From NCBI RefSeq assembly GCF_000027125.1, contig NC_017626.1: 64,000 nt of DNA; one strand, written 5' to 3'. The notes under the pieces were generated by a model. That model was not told the origin of the DNA. It did no database searches and saw only the letters and a program-made list of their open reading frames with translations. Made by a program: the position numbers and the translations under genes. Position 1 is the stretch's first letter. Every line of letters begins with the position of its first letter. This stretch comes from Escherichia coli 042. Lineage in GTDB: Bacteria > Pseudomonadota > Gammaproteobacteria > Enterobacterales > Enterobacteriaceae. Below are positions 541 to 60,770 of this stretch, one piece after another.

Positions 541-553
541 TGCATTGAATAAT

Positions 554-583
554 AAAAATGGCGCAAATGCAGCGCCATTTTTA
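554..583. terminator. Bidirectional rho-independent terminator between convergent yagU and ykgJ
   Basis: Perfect 6-bp stem TGGCGC / GCGCCA (559-564, 572-577) with a 7-nt loop, flanked by an A-run upstream and a T-run downstream. Confidence 0.6.
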
Positions 584-788
584 TAGGTTAAAAACATTGC
601 TTTTTACTTTCTGAAGCAGATAGCCAGTGAGTACATCGCGCTACTTCAGGATGCTGTAGATCCGGAGAACACTATAGAGGAAGATGCATTGTTGCTGGCA
701 GATGGAAGAAGTTTCGGGTTTTGTTATCCCTGAAAAACGAAGCCCCGCGGTTATAGCTGGCGGGGCAGTGCAATTAATTATTGCATAT

Positions 789-26631: not shown

Positions 26632-27486
26632 ATGGATGCTCTTAGCCGTTTGTTGATGCTTAACGCTCCACAAGGAACGATCGATAAGAATTGCGTGTTA
26701 GGAAGTGACTGGCAACTTCCACATGGTGCCGGGGAATTGTCGGTTATTCGTTGGCATGCGTTAACGCAAGGAGCGGCGAAGCTGGAAATGCCGACGGGAG
26801 AGATTTTTACATTACGCCCGGGAAATGTGGTCCTGCTACCACAAAATTCAGCTCATCGCCTGAGTCATGTCGATAATGAATCGACCTATATTGTCTGTGG
26901 CACTCTTCGGCTGCAACATTCGGCGCGTTATTTTTTAACGTCTTTGCCGGAAACGCTGTTTGTAGCACCAGTGAACCATAGCGTGGAATATAACTGGCTG
27001 AGGGAGGCGATCCCGTTTTTACAACAGGAATCCAGATCGGCAATGCCGGGAGTGGATGCACTGTGTAGCCAGATCTGCGCTACATTCTTTATCCTCGCGG
27101 TGCGTGAGTGGATTGCACAGGTTAATACAGAGAAAAACATTCTCAGTTTGCTTCTGCATCCACGTCTTGGTGCGGTAATACAGCAAATGCTGGAAATGCC
27201 AGGACACGCCTGGACCGTCGAATCGCTGGCCAGCATCGCCCACATGTCCCGGGCAAGTTTTGCCCAGCTTTTCCGTGATGTTTCCGGAACCACGCCGCTG
27301 GCTGTATTAACAAAGTTGCGTCTACAAATAGCGGCCCAGATGTTTTCCCGGGAAACGCTCCCTGTTGTGGTGATCGCTGAGTCAGTAGGCTATGCCAGTG
27401 AATCATCTTTTCACAAGGCGTTTGTTCGCGAGTTTGGTTGTACCCCGGGAGAATATCGGGAAAGGGTCAGACAGCTTGCACCCTGA
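26632..27486 (+). CDS. rclR: RclR, redox-sensing AraC-family activator of rclABC
   Basis: ORF 26581..27486; start set at ATG 26632 (MDALSRLLML) with AGGAG SD; C-terminal AraC HTH; Cys at KNCVL and IVCGT; divergent from rclA. Confidence 0.85.
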   Translation: MDALSRLLMLNAPQGTIDKNCVLGSDWQLPHGAGELSVIRWHALTQGAAKLEMPTGEIFTLRPGNVVLLPQNSAHRLSHVDNESTYIVCGTLRLQHSARYFLTSLPETLFVAPVNHSVEYNWLREAIPFLQQESRSAMPGVDALCSQICATFFILAVREWIAQVNTEKNILSLLLHPRLGAVIQQMLEMPGHAWTVESLASIAHMSRASFAQLFRDVSGTTPLAVLTKLRLQIAAQMFSRETLPVVVIAESVGYASESSFHKAFVREFGCTPGEYRERVRQLAP

Positions 27487-28004
27487 ATAAAACCGCCAGA
27501 AATCAGGGCAAAGATAATCCGCATTCCGGGAGTTGTGAGCCTTTCAACTATTTCTATTTCCAAGTTTTTTATATATTTTTTTGAAGTGGTCTGGCTTAGT
27601 AATTAAATAAAAGATACAAACTAAATTGCTTCAATTAAATAAAATGCCGATTATTACTTGATACGTAATTATTGTTGGTGATTTTGTTTGTACACCATCA
27701 GTGTATATCTCAATAACCCCTGAATAAGTAGCACTGAATAGGTATAAGGGATGTGGCCATTTTTAAATGGATTTCTTATGCCAAAAATGATCGTCGATCT
27801 CCCCATAAAATGTGAGCGATGCCGAAAGAAATAAAATTAGTTATTGCATTTGAAGTTTGGATGAAAGATTATCATTTGTCATACAAATGAGGGGTGGTAT
27901 GTTGCTAGCCAATTAAAAAAGAACGCCATATTTATTGATGATTGCTCCCCCGGAAGGGGGGAACCATCGGGCATAAATGGGCATGAAGTAATGGAGTATT
28001 AGTT

Positions 28005-28724
28005 GTGAATGTCAATTTCTTTGTCACCTGTATTGGTGACGCCCTGAAATCAAGAATGGCACGAGACTCCGTGCTGCTACTGGAAAAACTCGGCTGTCGC
28101 GTAAATTTCCCAGAGAAACAGGGATGCTGCGGTCAGCCTGCGATCAATAGTGGTTATATCAAAGAAGCGATTCCAGGGATGAAAAATCTGATCGCCGCAC
28201 TGGAGGATAACGACGATCCCATTATTTCACCGGCTGGCTCCTGTACCTATGCCGTAAAAAGTTACCCAACGTATCTGGCGGATGAGCCTGAATGGGCATC
28301 ACGTGCCGAAAGGGTTGCCGCGCGTATGCAGGATCTCACCTCTTTTATTGTTAATACATTAGGGGTAGTCGATGTAGGTGCCAGTTTGCAAGGGAGAGCG
28401 GTGTATCACCCATCTTGTAGCCTGGCCCGTAAGCTGGGGGTGAAGGACGAGCCACTTACGTTGCTGAAAAATGTGCGTGGACTGGAGCTGTTGACCTTTG
28501 CTGAACAGGATACCTGCTGCGGATTTGGCGGCACGTTCTCGGTCAAAATGGCCGAAATATCCGGCGAGATGGTGAAAGAAAAGGTTGTGCACCTGATGGA
28601 AGTCCGCCCTGAGTATTTAATTGGTGCTGACGTGAGTTGCCTGCTGAACATCAGTGGGCGATTACAACGGGAAGGGCAGAAAGTCAAAGTGATGCATATT
28701 GCTGAAGTGCTGATGAGCCGCTGA
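28005..28724 (+). CDS. ykgE: YkgE, LutA-like Fe-S oxidoreductase subunit (CCG domains)
   Basis: 239-aa ORF starting at GTG with GGAG SD; Cys-rich CCG-type motifs (CCGQPA, CCGFGG). Confidence 0.85.
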   Translation: MNVNFFVTCIGDALKSRMARDSVLLLEKLGCRVNFPEKQGCCGQPAINSGYIKEAIPGMKNLIAALEDNDDPIISPAGSCTYAVKSYPTYLADEPEWASRAERVAARMQDLTSFIVNTLGVVDVGASLQGRAVYHPSCSLARKLGVKDEPLTLLKNVRGLELLTFAEQDTCCGFGGTFSVKMAEISGEMVKEKVVHLMEVRPEYLIGADVSCLLNISGRLQREGQKVKVMHIAEVLMSR

Positions 28725-28734
28725 GGATATAAAG

Positions 28735-30162
28735 ATGTCGATCAAAACCAGTAATACAGATTTTAAGACACGCATCCGTCAGCAAATTGAAGATCCGATC
28801 ATGCGCAAAGCGGTGGCAAACGCGCAGCAGCGTATTGGGGCAAATCGGCAAAAAATGGTCGATGAATTGGGGCACTGGGAGGAGTGGCGCGATCGGGCCG
28901 CCCAGATACGTGATCATGTTCTGAGTAATCTCGACGCTTATCTGTACCAGCTCTCAGAAAAAGTGACGCAAAACTGCGGTCACGTCTATTTTGCAAAAAC
29001 CAAAGAAGACGCTACCCGCTACATTTTACAGGTTGCCCAACGCAAAAATGCCCGGAAGGTGGTGAAATCTAAATCGATGGTGACCGAAGAGATTGGTGTC
29101 AATCATGTGTTGCAGGATGCTGGCATTCAGGTGATTGAAACCGATCTGGGTGAATACATTCTCCAGCTGGATCAAGATCCGCCCTCTCATGTTGTGGTCC
29201 CGGCAATTCATAAAGATCGCCATCAGATCCGTCGGGTGCTACACGAACGTCTGGGCTATGAGGGGGCGGAAACGCCTGAAGCAATGACCTTATTCATCCG
29301 GCAAAAAATCCGCGAAGATTTCCTCAGTGCTGAAATAGGTATTACCGGCTGTAATTTCGCGGTGGCAGAGACCGGTTCGGTATGCCTGGTGACCAATGAA
29401 GGTAATGCGCGAATGTGTACCACGCTGCCTAAAACGCATATTGCAGTGATGGGAATGGAGCGTATTGCCCCCACGTTTGCCGAGGTAGATGTATTGATCA
29501 CCATGCTGGCGCGCAGTGCCGTTGGTGCACGTTTGACGGGATACAACACCTGGCTGACAGGACCGCGCGAAGCGGGGCACGTTGATGGTCCTGAAGAGTT
29601 TCATCTGGTTATTGTCGATAACGGGCGTTCTGAGGTGCTGGCCTCTGAATTTCGGGATGTGCTGCGCTGTATTCGCTGCGGGGCTTGTATGAATACTTGT
29701 CCGGCATATCGCCATATTGGCGGTCATGGATATGGCTCTATTTATCCAGGGCCAATTGGTGCGGTGATTTCTCCGCTACTTGGCGGCTATAAAGATTTTA
29801 AAGATTTACCCTACGCCTGCTCTTTATGCACTGCTTGTGACAACGTGTGTCCGGTGCGTATTCCGCTGTCAAAACTGATTTTGCGTCATCGTCGGGTGAT
29901 GGCTGAAAAAGGGATCACCGCAAAAGCAGAGCAACGGGCGATAAAAATGTTCGCTTATGCCAATAGTCATCCAGGATTGTGGAAAGTCGGGATGATGGCT
30001 GGTGCTCATGCGGCAAGCTGGTTTATCAATGGCGGCAAAACACCACTCAAATTTGGCGCGATTAGCGACTGGATGGAAGCACGCGATCTTCCTGAAGCTG
30101 ACGGAGAGAGTTTCCGTAGTTGGTTTAAGAAACATCAGGCGCAGGAGAAAAAGAATGGATAA
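28735..30162 (+). CDS. ykgF: YkgF, LutB-like iron-sulfur protein (4Fe-4S ferredoxin domains plus DUF162/LUD)
   Basis: 475-aa ORF; two CxxCxxCxxxCP ferredoxin motifs (CIRCGACMNTCP, CSLCTACDNVCP). Confidence 0.9.
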   Translation: MSIKTSNTDFKTRIRQQIEDPIMRKAVANAQQRIGANRQKMVDELGHWEEWRDRAAQIRDHVLSNLDAYLYQLSEKVTQNCGHVYFAKTKEDATRYILQVAQRKNARKVVKSKSMVTEEIGVNHVLQDAGIQVIETDLGEYILQLDQDPPSHVVVPAIHKDRHQIRRVLHERLGYEGAETPEAMTLFIRQKIREDFLSAEIGITGCNFAVAETGSVCLVTNEGNARMCTTLPKTHIAVMGMERIAPTFAEVDVLITMLARSAVGARLTGYNTWLTGPREAGHVDGPEEFHLVIVDNGRSEVLASEFRDVLRCIRCGACMNTCPAYRHIGGHGYGSIYPGPIGAVISPLLGGYKDFKDLPYACSLCTACDNVCPVRIPLSKLILRHRRVMAEKGITAKAEQRAIKMFAYANSHPGLWKVGMMAGAHAASWFINGGKTPLKFGAISDWMEARDLPEADGESFRSWFKKHQAQEKKNG

Positions 30163-30850
30163 TCGGAGCGAATTTTTGAATAACGTTGCTCAGGCACTGG
30201 GTCGCCCGCTGCGACTTGAACCGCAAGCAGAAGATGCGCCGCTTAACAACTATGCTAACGAGCGGCTTACCGAACTTAACCAACAGCAGCGCTGTGACGC
30301 GTTTATTCAGTTTGCCAGCGATGTTATGTTGACGCGCTGTGAGCTGACCAGCGAGGCGAAGGCGGCAGAAGCTGCAATACGTCTGTGTAAAGAGCTGGGA
30401 GAGCAGTCGGTCGTGATTAGCGGTGACACGAGGTTGGAGGAATTGGGGATTAGCGAACGTTTGCAGCAGGAATGCAATGCCGTTGTTTGGGATCCGGCGA
30501 AAGGTGCCGAGAATATCTCGCAGGCAGAGCAGGCTAAAGTGGGTGTCGTGTATGCTGAATATGGTTTAACCGAATCGGGAGGCGTGGTTCTTTTTTCCGC
30601 CGCCGAGCGCGGGCGTTCATTGAGCCTGCTCCCGGAATCTTCTCTTTTTATCCTGCGTAAAAGCACAATCCTGCCGCGTGTAGCGCAACTCGCAGAAAAA
30701 TTGCATCAGAAAGCGCAGGCCGGTGAACGAATGCCGTCCTGCATTAACATCATTAGCGGCCCTAGTTCAACGGCGGATATTGAGCTTATCAAAGTCGTCG
30801 GGGTTCATGGTCCGGTGAAAGCGGTGTATCTGATTATTGAGGATTGCTGA
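30155..30850 (+). CDS. ykgG: YkgG, LutC-like protein (LUD domain)
   Basis: ORF 30002..30850; start set at ATG 30155 (MDNRSEFLNNVAQ), overlapping the ykgF stop by 8 nt; 231 aa. Confidence 0.85.
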   Translation: MDNRSEFLNNVAQALGRPLRLEPQAEDAPLNNYANERLTELNQQQRCDAFIQFASDVMLTRCELTSEAKAAEAAIRLCKELGEQSVVISGDTRLEELGISERLQQECNAVVWDPAKGAENISQAEQAKVGVVYAEYGLTESGGVVLFSAAERGRSLSLLPESSLFILRKSTILPRVAQLAEKLHQKAQAGERMPSCINIISGPSSTADIELIKVVGVHGPVKAVYLIIEDC

Positions 30851-30956
30851 GAGAGATATGAAGTCTGGACATAAACCTGAAGGCGGCATACGAGGTTGTG
30901 AATAGCGTTAAGGACAACCTGACTTAACCCCGTTCCGTCATGGTTATGCTGCTCTT

Positions 30957-30997
30957 CTGTAAATATCCTGACATTAATAATGCCAGGATATTTACAG
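30957..30997. repeat. Perfect 14-bp inverted repeat (hairpin or dyad site) between convergent ykgG and ykgH
   Basis: CTGTAAATATCCTG - 13 nt - CAGGATATTTACAG, read directly from the sequence. Confidence 0.5.
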
Positions 30998-31092
30998 TGA
31001 AAAAGACAGGAATCCATTCCTGAAGACGGGCTCCCTTCCCGGTCATTGTCACTTCAGTTTTATACAGGCACTCTCTATCAGAATGCTGTTTA

Positions 31093-31761
31093 TTACTGCC
31101 CAGAGTTTTGTTGGTATTCATCTACCATTTTTTTGACAAGACAAAACATTACAGAAATTACAATGCTTAGAAAAAATCCCAGAATCAGGCAAATGGCAGC
31201 AGGGTATTTATTTTTTATTTCTGGTGAGCTTATAGTGACACAGTCATCACCGTTCGGATACAATGACCAGTTCCTGGTCAGGTATATCATTTTTGTATAA
31301 AGCTCACTGTTAATTGCTGAAGGCGTTTGTATCTCATCAAGAACTTGCCTGCCATTATGGTATTCTGACGCATACCATTTGATAATAGACGCATGCACGC
31401 GAGATATTTCCACTTCAGCAGTTGGTAAATCTCTCTTATCTCCTGACCATTCCAGCTTTATTTCTCTGTTCTTGACATCTGGGCTGGTGTGAAAAAATGT
31501 AGTAATTCGCTGTATAACATCTTCAGTCATTGTGGTCTGACAGGCAAAGTTATTATTGCTATCACAGTTAACAAGTATGCCTGGTGTTGTCTGATTTATT
31601 TTTAGGCTGTAACTCACTTTTATATTATCTTTATTGATATACAGAAATAAAAGCACCATTGCCATACAGATGGCTATAATAAAAAGGATAACACGAATCT
31701 TTTTCTTCAGATAAAATAAAATCTCAATCAGATCGATATCCTGTTTGATTTGTTCATTCAT
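31093..31761 (-). CDS. ykgH: YkgH, predicted inner-membrane protein
   Basis: 222-aa ORF with N-terminal and C-terminal transmembrane helices. Confidence 0.8.
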   Translation of the reverse strand: MNEQIKQDIDLIEILFYLKKKIRVILFIIAICMAMVLLFLYINKDNIKVSYSLKINQTTPGILVNCDSNNNFACQTTMTEDVIQRITTFFHTSPDVKNREIKLEWSGDKRDLPTAEVEISRVHASIIKWYASEYHNGRQVLDEIQTPSAINSELYTKMIYLTRNWSLYPNGDDCVTISSPEIKNKYPAAICLILGFFLSIVISVMFCLVKKMVDEYQQNSGQ

Positions 31762-49984: not shown

Positions 49985-50165
49985 CTCTGCCGGATGCGGC
50001 GTGAACGCCTTATCCGGCCTACGAGTGGCGCGAGAATCTGTAGGCCTGATAAGCGTAGCGCATCAGGCATTTGTCACCATTGCCGGATGCGGCGTGAACG
50101 CCTTATCCGGCCTACGAATGGCACGAGAATTCTAGGCCTGATAAGCGTAGCGCATCAGGCAGTCT
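49985..50165. repeat. REP/BIME element pair (two inverted REP units) between yahG and yahI
   Basis: Two copies of GCCGGATGCGGCGTGAACGCCTTATCCGGCCTACG and two of TAGGCCTGATAAGCGTAGCGCATCAGGC in alternating orientation. Confidence 0.7.
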
Positions 50166-60289: not shown

Positions 60290-60770
60290 GGTTGTATTCG
60301 ACAACCGATGCCTGATGCGCCGCTGACGCGGCTTATCAGGCCTACGGGATGAACTGAACTGTAGGTCGGATAAGACGCATAGCGTCGCATCCGACAACCG
60401 ATGCCTGATGCGCCGCTGACGCGGCTTATCAGGCCTACGGGGTGAACTGAACTGTAGGTCGGATAAGACGCATAGCGTCGCATCCGACAACCGATGCCTG
60501 ATGCGCCGCTGACGCGGCTTATCAGGCCTACGGGGCGTGCTGAACTGTAGGTCGGATAAGACGTATGGCGTCGCATCCGACAACCGATGCCTGATGCGCC
60601 GCTGACGCGACTTATCAGGCCTACGGGGTGAACTGAACTGTAGGTCGGATAAGACGCATGGCGTCGCATCCGACAACCGATGCCTGATGCGACGCTGACG
60701 CGGCTTATCAGGCCTGCGGGGTGAACTGAACTGTAGGTCGGATAAGACGCATAGCGTCGCATCCGACAAC
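60290..60770. repeat. Tandem REP/BIME array (about five copies of a roughly 90-bp composite unit) between prpB and prpC
   Basis: Near-identical units CGACAACCGATGCCTGATGCGCCGCTGACGCGGCTTATCAGGCCTACGGGGTGAACTGAACTGTAGGTCGGATAAGACGCATAGCGTCGCATC repeated head-to-tail with point variants. Confidence 0.75.

Follow-up and report, generated by a model that had tools for sequence, protein, structure and literature searches.

The chromosomal ykgEFG operon of Escherichia coli 042: a probable LutABC-type L-lactate oxidoreductase under YieP and FNR control, with a position-conserved hairpin in its leader

The ykgEFG operon of Escherichia coli 042 occupies positions 28005-30850 of the 64,000-nucleotide stretch of contig NC_017626.1 (RefSeq assembly GCF_000027125.1) that is called the window here. 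We consider it very probable that this region is the chromosomal orthologue of lutABC/lldEFG, encoding a flavin-independent, three-subunit iron-sulfur (Fe-S) L-lactate:quinone oxidoreductase controlled by YieP and FNR. Published work already covers the operon, the family it belongs to, its repressor and its L-lactate phenotype; the only new residue is a leader hairpin that is conserved in position and variable in sequence, and it is probably minor. The window adds nothing new on the flavin-free lactate-oxidation chemistry of LutABC. The genes and the ribosome-binding site of the first of them are:

27993-27996, + strand: Shine-Dalgarno sequence GGAG of ykgE, 8 nt before the GTG
28005-28724, + strand: ykgE (LutA/LldE-type), GTG start, 239 aa, two CCG domains, nine invariant cysteines, no transmembrane segment
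28735-30162, + strand: ykgF (LutB/LldF-type), ATG start, 475 aa, N-terminal LUD domain, two [4Fe-4S] motifs, LutB_C tail
30155-30850, + strand: ykgG (LutC/LldG-type), 231 aa, LUD domain, AGGAG 8 nt before the start

The stop codon of ykgE (TGA, 28722-28724) is followed by GGATATAAAG and then by the ykgF ATG, a 10-nt gap that contains a GAGGA-like ribosome-binding site; ykgF and ykgG share the 8 nt ATGGATAA at 30155-30162, which hold the ykgG start together with the last codons and the stop of ykgF. The list of open reading frames (ORFs) gives the ykgG frame as 30002-30850, and the annotated, biological start is its Met-52 ATG at 30155. At the position of the ykgE start, orthologues have GTG or ATG behind a conserved GGAG, which lies within the block AATGAAGyAATGGAGTA shared by Escherichia, Citrobacter and Tenebrionibacter. 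An upstream mini-ORF in this block (ATG AAG TAA, 27983-27991) was considered and rejected; its ATG is conserved and its frame is not: in E. coli the ORF spans 2 codons, and elsewhere it reads through out of frame. The block around this ATG is treated as a putative conserved translation-initiation region.

RefSeq annotates the same three coding sequences with the same spacing in K-12 (b0306-b0308) and in the closest complete genome, and the neighbours are also the same in the window and in both of these genomes, with rclCBA and rclR upstream and ykgH and betAB downstream. The ykgEFG region occurs in 5,235 of 5,426 complete E. coli genomes, with coverage of at least 80% in 5,129 (about 95%). The allele of the window (27487-30950, 3.46 kb) is uncommon: of the 5,255 matching E. 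coli records, 14 reach 99% identity to it or more, and the best has 99.5%. Compared with the K-12 proteins, YkgE, YkgF and YkgG differ at 4, 3 and 4 residues, respectively, and the excess of synonymous (26) over non-synonymous (11) codon differences across the operon indicates that the genes are intact and under purifying selection.

Our domain analysis places all three products in the LutABC family. YkgE matches PF02754 of Pfam in two stretches (115 bits, cut-off 20.6, E 1.6e-33) and carries the CCG motifs C9-X31-C41C42-X37-C80 and C138-X32-C171C172-X39-C212; its nine cysteines, of which C31 is the ninth, are all invariant in 29 orthologues with identities down to 64%. YkgF has the Pfam domains LUD, Fer4_8 and LutB_C and two [4Fe-4S] motifs of the CxxCxxCxxxCP type, CIRCGACMNTCP at 312 and CSLCTACDNVCP at 362, and it scores 775 bits on the NCBIfam equivalog TIGR00273 (LutB/LldF family L-lactate oxidation iron-sulfur protein), the cut-off of which is 444.8. 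YkgG matches PF02589 (LUD) with 105.7 bits against a cut-off of 22.6, bears the RefSeq name 'LutC/YkgG family protein' and has no NCBIfam model match. Its LUD residues R154, S157, E210 and H218 are invariant. Partial NCBIfam matches among the three proteins are to GlcF, GlpC, TfrB and HdrB. None of the three has a membrane helix, the 19-residue Kyte-Doolittle value never exceeding 1.4.

A sequence search of the PDB returned remote relatives alone: YkgE found HdrB, the ferredoxin part of YkgF found HdrC, and YkgG found the DUF162 structure 2G40. The AlphaFold model of YkgE (predicted local distance difference test score, pLDDT, 88) resembles the Bacillus subtilis LutA chain 9a6l_A with a template modelling (TM) score of 0.95 and 52% identity, 9A6L being an integrative LutA-LutB model and not an experimental structure. 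The same model matches HdrB chains at TM 0.77-0.82 (E about 1e-10) and, more weakly, mycobacterial EtfD. The YkgG model (pLDDT 82) matches 2G40 (E 1.9e-12) and the LUD domain of LutB (9a6l_B, E 6.6e-11), and its similarity to sugar-phosphate isomerase and eIF2B folds stays below threshold. An earlier note on this DNA had named the genes and described the operon as LutABC-like, which the domains, the annotation, the equivalog and the structure match bear out. Its other readings of the three genes hold equally: the GTG start of ykgE agrees with the ORF list and the orthologue starts, the 10-bp gap and the 8-nt overlap can be read directly and recur in RefSeq K-12, and the CCG-domain and ferredoxin-type cysteine motifs are recovered by the Pfam search (PF02754 and others) and by motif reading.

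At the level of sequence, ykgEFG has everything that marks a LutABC/LldEFG system, namely the gene order and the features of the LutA, LutB and LutC subunits; linkage to lactate genes, a supporting and not strictly defining feature, is lacking at this locus. LutABC of B. subtilis (YvfV-YvfW-YvbY), the founding L-lactate operon, has the same gene order and domain content. Its regulation differs, with LutR and the iron-sparing small RNAs FsrA and RoxS described in the literature on Bacillus, and YieP and an FNR-dependent site in E. coli. E. coli has LldD as well, which makes its ykgEFG phenotype conditional on nitrate respiration. LldEFG of Shewanella oneidensis, compared here by description only, belongs to the same family with the same subunits and is equated with YkgEFG in two papers (PMC9701030 and PMC8827060); according to the literature Shewanella uses it as its main L-lactate dehydrogenase, whereas E. 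coli does not.

Two further systems share parts of this architecture. The first is the HdrB/HdrC module of heterodisulfide reductase (Hdr), grouped here with the CCG subunits GlcF, GlpC and EtfD: YkgE has the HdrB fold with two CCG domains, and the ferredoxin part of YkgF matches HdrC. The canonical HdrB CCG motif is CX31-39CCX35-36CXXC, with five cysteines per domain. Hdr differs from YkgEFG in sequence (16-18% identity) and in substrate, a heterodisulfide versus a hydroxy acid and quinone; as judged from these comparisons, YkgEFG would work like an Hdr-type electron module and is not a member of Hdr. The second is LdhH, the large subunit of a quinone L-lactate dehydrogenase (NF045670), a natural fusion of LutB-like and LutA-like halves. 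YkgF matches positions 2-464 of this model and YkgE positions 468-705, with 422 and 183 bits, far under the 800-bit cut-off. E. coli encodes these halves in separate genes and has YkgG as a third subunit; that YkgF and YkgE fall on one fused model is a Rosetta-stone argument that both act as one unit.

A scan of relatives, with one genome per species, gave 72 loci with close YkgE relatives, ranging from Escherichia and Citrobacter to Pectobacterium, Proteus, Pasteurellaceae and Vibrionaceae. In 71 of these loci the genes stand in the order E-F-G; YkgG diverges fastest. A lactate permease (PF02652) lies immediately upstream in 40 of the 72, mostly in the same orientation; C. gillenii and Tenebrionibacter have the respiratory D-lactate dehydrogenase Dld as the upstream neighbour, and in Vibrionaceae a LysR regulator follows the operon. 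A diverged copy of the operon (83.6% nucleotide identity), accompanied by permease and dld, is carried by 157 plasmids, 121 of them from Klebsiella and mostly conjugative IncF. This plasmid lutABC shares the 10-nt gap and the 8-nt overlap of ykgEFG, IS3-family and toxin-antitoxin genes adjoin it, and the module agrees with the published pFec10 (PMC7984374) and with an island of E. coli sequence type 127 (ST127). The lctP-dld-lutABC module, found on plasmids and islands of Klebsiella, E. coli and Citrobacter, differs from the chromosomal operon in having its own permease and dld, in being mobile (conjugative IncF plasmids, pFec10) and in being without the YieP-controlled promoter region. The permease and dld context of these relatives ties the family to lactate independently; the chromosomal ykgEFG of E. 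coli has lost its linkage to these genes.

Two of these loci may be described individually. On the K. pneumoniae plasmid p08EU827_1 (L083, 1240-7846) the order is permease (- strand), dld, lutA, lutB and lutC. The one locus that departs from the E-F-G order, that of Serratia marcescens (L073, 3001-3540), is a decayed operon in which ykgE breaks off after residue 78, ykgF is missing and ykgG is reduced to its first 77 residues.

The control region of ykgE, which the earlier note did not mention, can be placed on the window from published data. By mass spectrometry and knockout, Reg-Seq detected a YieP site at the ykgE promoter, and in addition an FNR-dependent activator site (2020; PMC7567609). 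We took the footprints from the Figure 5 source data of that paper and set their register by the YieP weight matrix (index 80-94 = ATTTGTCATACAAAT), so that a position on the window equals the Reg-Seq index + 27794. The resulting features are:

27807-27829, no strand assigned: FNR-dependent activator site (Reg-Seq), AAAATGTGAGCGATGCCGAAAGA, -102..-80 in construct numbering, identical in K-12
27844-27849, + strand: ykgE promoter -35 element TTGCAT; Reg-Seq RNA polymerase footprint at index 48-55 (27842-27849) in a yieP deletion strain
27867-27872, + strand: ykgE promoter -10 element GATTAT after a 17-nt spacer; Reg-Seq RNA polymerase footprint at index 72-78 (27866-27872) in the same yieP deletion strain
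27872-27890, no strand assigned: YieP operator, a perfect 19-bp palindrome TCATTTGT-CAT-ACAAATGA with the core ATTTGTCATACAAAT at 27874-27888

The operator is an inverted repeat with 8-nt arms that are 100% complementary, and it overlaps the end of the -10 element and the start site. It is invariant in 13 Escherichia sequences and fits the Reg-Seq YieP matrix at every position as well as the motif atTTGTaTGAcaAAT from chromatin immunoprecipitation with exonuclease digestion (ChIP-exo; PMC7642389); the palindromic operator that goes with membership in the regulon of YieP, a GntR-family repressor, is present at the ykgE promoter. In yieP mutants of strains W and K-12, ykgEFG was derepressed about 10-fold, and YieP binds the site (PMC7642389). 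Judged by the -10 position, transcription would start at about 27879-27881, giving a leader of about 125 nt. A start inside the YieP operator explains the remark in the Reg-Seq paper that the repressor site is downstream of the polymerase site. The same arrangement of -35, 17-nt spacer, -10 and operator occurs in three other Escherichia species, with a differing spacer sequence, and YieP-like half-sites precede ykgE in one C. youngae and one Proteus locus. The FNR-dependent site is centred at about -61.5 from the putative start; -61.5 is the classical position of a class-I activator. A promoter suggested by a consensus scan (TTGTCA at 27876, TGnTATGTT at 27903), which coincides with the computational start given by Reg-Seq (index 115, 27909), was rejected: the footprint is flat at that start, and the information on RNA polymerase peaks at index 48-55 and 72-78.

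The rclR-ykgE spacer as a whole is 518 bp long, AT-rich and otherwise nearly identical to that of K-12, 9 bp of which (CGGTGGTTT) are missing in the window at 27564-27620, with a substitution cluster just downstream. No function is assigned to some 320 bp of it that lie upstream of the mapped promoter.

The physiological evidence comes from published work. Taylor et al. (2022) found that a ykgEFG deletion in E. coli MP1 caused a competitive defect with L-lactate plus nitrate under anaerobic conditions and none with D-lactate, and concluded that YkgEFG is a respiratory L-lactate dehydrogenase (PMC9701030). In engineered strains designed not to consume lactate, ykgF has been deleted alongside lldD, dld and glcD. 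Because FNR-dependent activation fits this nitrate-dependent phenotype, our results suggest that YkgEFG is the L-lactate dehydrogenase of anaerobic (nitrate) respiration, complementing the aerobic LldD, and the promoter from Reg-Seq, the operator of YieP and the FNR-dependent site, once placed on the sequence, suggest a coherent picture of such an enzyme, in agreement with the one phenotype reported.

We propose that L-lactate is bound and oxidized at the LUD domains, formed by the N-terminal half of YkgF and by YkgG, and that the electrons would pass to the two [4Fe-4S] clusters of YkgF (HdrC-like), then to the CCG-domain clusters of YkgE (HdrB-like), which would hand them to the quinone pool at the membrane surface. 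As the structure of LutABC is represented by an integrative model alone, this electron path and this catalytic site are putative. The three genes, with their 10-nt gap and 8-nt overlap, are translationally coupled, and their sigma-70 promoter lies about 125 nt upstream of the GTG. YieP, sitting on the palindrome over the start site, shuts this promoter off, and the FNR-dependent site near -61.5 raises it anaerobically, which would make YkgEFG the anaerobic or nitrate counterpart of LldD.

Several points weigh against this assignment. The ykgEFG mutant had no phenotype in mouse colitis models in which LldD mattered (PMC9701030), Chai et al. (2009), as cited in PMC7984374, reportedly saw no phenotype in K-12, and overexpression of ykgEFG left lactate titres unchanged. 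At its locus the operon is unlinked to a lactate permease or a lactate regulator, its neighbours being rclR and ykgH-betA, and the regulon of its repressor YieP is tied to tolerance of 3-hydroxypropionate (3-HP; PMC7642389). The PDB searches by sequence and by structure gave no experimental structure of a LutABC complex, only the integrative model. The CCG motifs of YkgE have four cysteines each, the final CxxC pair being absent after C80 and C212, and they depart in this from the canonical HdrB motif. By eye the AAAATGTGAGCGATGCCGAAAGA window matches the FNR consensus TTGAT-N4-ATCAA poorly, and no better FNR site was found by eye near 27807-27829; given this poor match, the FNR assignment rests on the Reg-Seq paper. 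The transcription start is a putative position deduced from the -10 element. L-lactate as the substrate of E. coli YkgEFG is supported in part, by genetics. The statement in the earlier note that the E. coli substrate is not firmly assigned is partly outdated by the L-lactate/nitrate deletion phenotype (PMC9701030) and holds with regard to enzymology.

Some of these points could be accommodated if a LutABC-type enzyme served another physiological substrate, a short 2- or 3-hydroxy acid such as 2,4-dihydroxybutyrate, a glycolate-like compound or one linked to 3-HP, with L-lactate oxidation as a side activity. YieP, and not LldR, controls the operon, together with the 3-HP exporter yohJK (PMC7642389); no lactate permease is linked to it in E. 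coli; and neither an in vivo fitness role where LldD matters nor, by the secondhand report on K-12, a phenotype in that strain was seen. To these comes the oxidation of 2,4-dihydroxybutyrate reported for LldD, for Dld and for YkgEFG by Malfoy et al. (2024, as cited in PMC13279387). However, the nitrate-respiration phenotype is stereospecific for L-lactate (PMC9701030), deletion of ykgEFG left 3-HP tolerance unchanged where deletion of yohJK mattered (PMC7642389), YkgF scores far above the LutB/LldF equivalog cut-off, and in 40 of 72 loci the orthologues, at 64-95% identity, directly follow a lactate permease, with dld adjoining them on plasmids. We therefore regard a different physiological substrate as quite improbable and retain L-lactate.

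The leader of the proposed transcript contains one further element:

27946-27962, + strand: leader hairpin UCCCCC-GGAAG-GGGGGA (C5/G6), about +67..+83, -12.8 kcal/mol

It consists of CCCCCGGAAGGGGGG at 27947-27961, with the stem closed by the pair U27946-A27962, and is the core of an imperfect 22-nt inverted repeat (27930-27978) whose extended fold reaches -18.8 kcal/mol. The earlier note had described a C5/G5 hairpin at about 27940-27960 upstream of the ykgE start and had called for structure prediction. The stem-loop does fold, but its coordinates were slightly off and it is C5/G6; it does precede the start codon, but by the Reg-Seq promoter it lies inside the transcribed 5' leader and not before the transcription unit. 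The end of the Reg-Seq construct, at 27953, falls in the middle of the hairpin. The exact pattern C5-N3-6-G5 occurs once in the 64 kb against 0.14 expected, at least one match being found in 11 of 100 shuffles, and the energy of the hairpin is in the top 0.34% of the 27-nt windows of the stretch. The hairpin is strong locally and, taken alone, statistically not extraordinary.

Two established roles were considered for this element and rejected. As an intrinsic terminator or attenuator it has the stem, but this is followed by AACCAUCGGG with no U-tract, and the terminator scan does not report it. As for a riboswitch or another known RNA in the leader, there was no Rfam match up to E = 1 within 27300-31300 and none at the gathering threshold. 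The Shine-Dalgarno sequence and the start codon of ykgE are not sequestered by the hairpin, and the leader (27880-28034) is no more stable than its shuffles (z = -0.13). RNAalifold on 12 Escherichia sequences found one compensatory pair with a covariation term of -0.35, which is unconvincing. No 3' end for ykgE is present in the Term-seq supplementary tables of PMC7815308, a weak negative, as the operon is repressed under those conditions.

In a sample of 10 alleles, the hairpin is the most polymorphic part of the E. coli leader, with GGAA, GGTG and GGT loops and a G-run of 5-7 that includes indels, and the stem-weakening variants GGAGGG, CCCCT and CCCCG circulate in the species. All sampled variants fold; the energies range from -8.8 to -12.8 kcal/mol within E. 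coli and from -6.6 to -10.9 kcal/mol in other Escherichia species. Of 20 loci of Escherichia, Citrobacter and Tenebrionibacter, 18 have a stem-loop equally far from the start codon, and so do plasmids, where the lctP-dld-lutABC module has its hairpin at this distance upstream of lutA. These variable hairpins stand between the conserved flanks TTTTTATT and ATAAA..AATGAAGCAATGGAGTA, and their sequences are unrelated: C. gillenii, with dld directly upstream, has the GC-rich CCGGCGGC/GCCGCCGG followed by TTTT, the C. freundii complex and the plasmid module have GCTTGATATCG/CGATATCAAGC, and the plasmid-module sequence GCTTGATATCGCGATATCAAGC is unrelated to the chromosomal hairpin of E. coli. On the plasmid examined, the hairpin lies about 20 nt after the dld stop codon. 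To judge by these positions, the E. coli hairpin is most likely the local version of an old hairpin at the dld-lutA junction that now lies in the leader. A part in stability or processing, a weak pause or a plain relic would all be candidates; it is not a switch.

Loci of the C. freundii complex (L009, about 2860-2905) have a 3' remnant of dld (..MNPG.SKT.KRKTGR*) directly upstream of ykgE and an intact, divergent lactate permease, which suggests a deletion of dld in that lineage. In loci L007, L015 and L065 a further deletion between short direct repeats has reshaped the hairpin.

What the hairpin does today, if anything, can be argued in three ways. It is conceivable, though the balance is tilted somewhat against it, that it is a non-functional, decayed relic: in an ancestral lctP-dld-lutABC module dld would have been followed by an intercistronic or terminator hairpin, whose remnant now drifts with the help of slippage in its C- and G-runs. 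At the homologous position, plasmids of Klebsiella and E. coli have a GC-rich palindrome after the dld stop and before lutA, the unrelated C. gillenii hairpin with its TTTT stands behind an adjacent dld, and the E. coli element combines the missing U-tract with the indels and polymorphism described above. An unconstrained element should nevertheless lose its pairing, whereas all sampled Escherichia lineages, three other species included, keep the stem; moreover, homology of the hairpins themselves is not demonstrable, as the flanks alone align.

The C5/G6 hairpin could also be a functional cis-regulatory RNA that tunes ykgEFG as an attenuator or pause, an RNase or protein site or a stability determinant, G-run length variation then producing expression differences from strain to strain. 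The position kept in 18 of 20 loci and on plasmids between conserved flanks, in spite of unrelated sequences, speaks for such a role, as do the folding of every E. coli variant and the locally high energy rank. We nonetheless hold it to be doubtful, in view of the missing U-tract and Rfam family, the small covariation term, the unremarkable stability of the leader, the weakened stems in circulation, the accessible Shine-Dalgarno sequence and start codon and the Term-seq result with its limit of repressed conditions.

Narrower still, and in our estimate distinctly unlikely, is the view that the position-conserved stem-loop about 35-60 nt before lutA/ykgE is a post-transcriptional element of lactate modules. 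If this were true, the stem-loop might process or stabilise the transcript and so uncouple dld from lutABC in Escherichia, Citrobacter, Tenebrionibacter and IncF plasmids, the E. coli hairpin might set the survival of ykgEFG mRNA once YieP repression is lifted, and the slippage-prone G5-G7 run would give heritable differences between strains.

Downstream of the operon, the spacer between the convergent ykgG and ykgH contains a perfect inverted repeat of 14 bp, CTGTAAATATCCTG/CAGGATATTTACAG, the arms of which enclose a 13-nt loop, at 30957-30998. Its arms are identical in K-12, where the loop differs; the repeat is absent from Escherichia sp. E1V33, and no T-run follows it on either strand. At 31007-31022 (- strand), downstream of the ykgH stop, the terminator-like hairpin CAGGAATGGATTCCTG is followed by TCTTTTTCAC and is likely the terminator of ykgH. 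The gene ykgH itself (31093-31761, - strand) has no Pfam match, a GC content of 0.33-0.39 versus about 0.50 for ykgEFG and a nucleotide identity to K-12 of 95.7% versus 98-99% for its neighbours; by these measures it looks faster-evolving or foreign. Elsewhere in the window, Rfam matches at the gathering level are IS009 at 546-746 (+ strand), naRNA4 at 50043-50112 (- strand) and four tandem copies of naRNA4 at 60364-60714 (+ strand).

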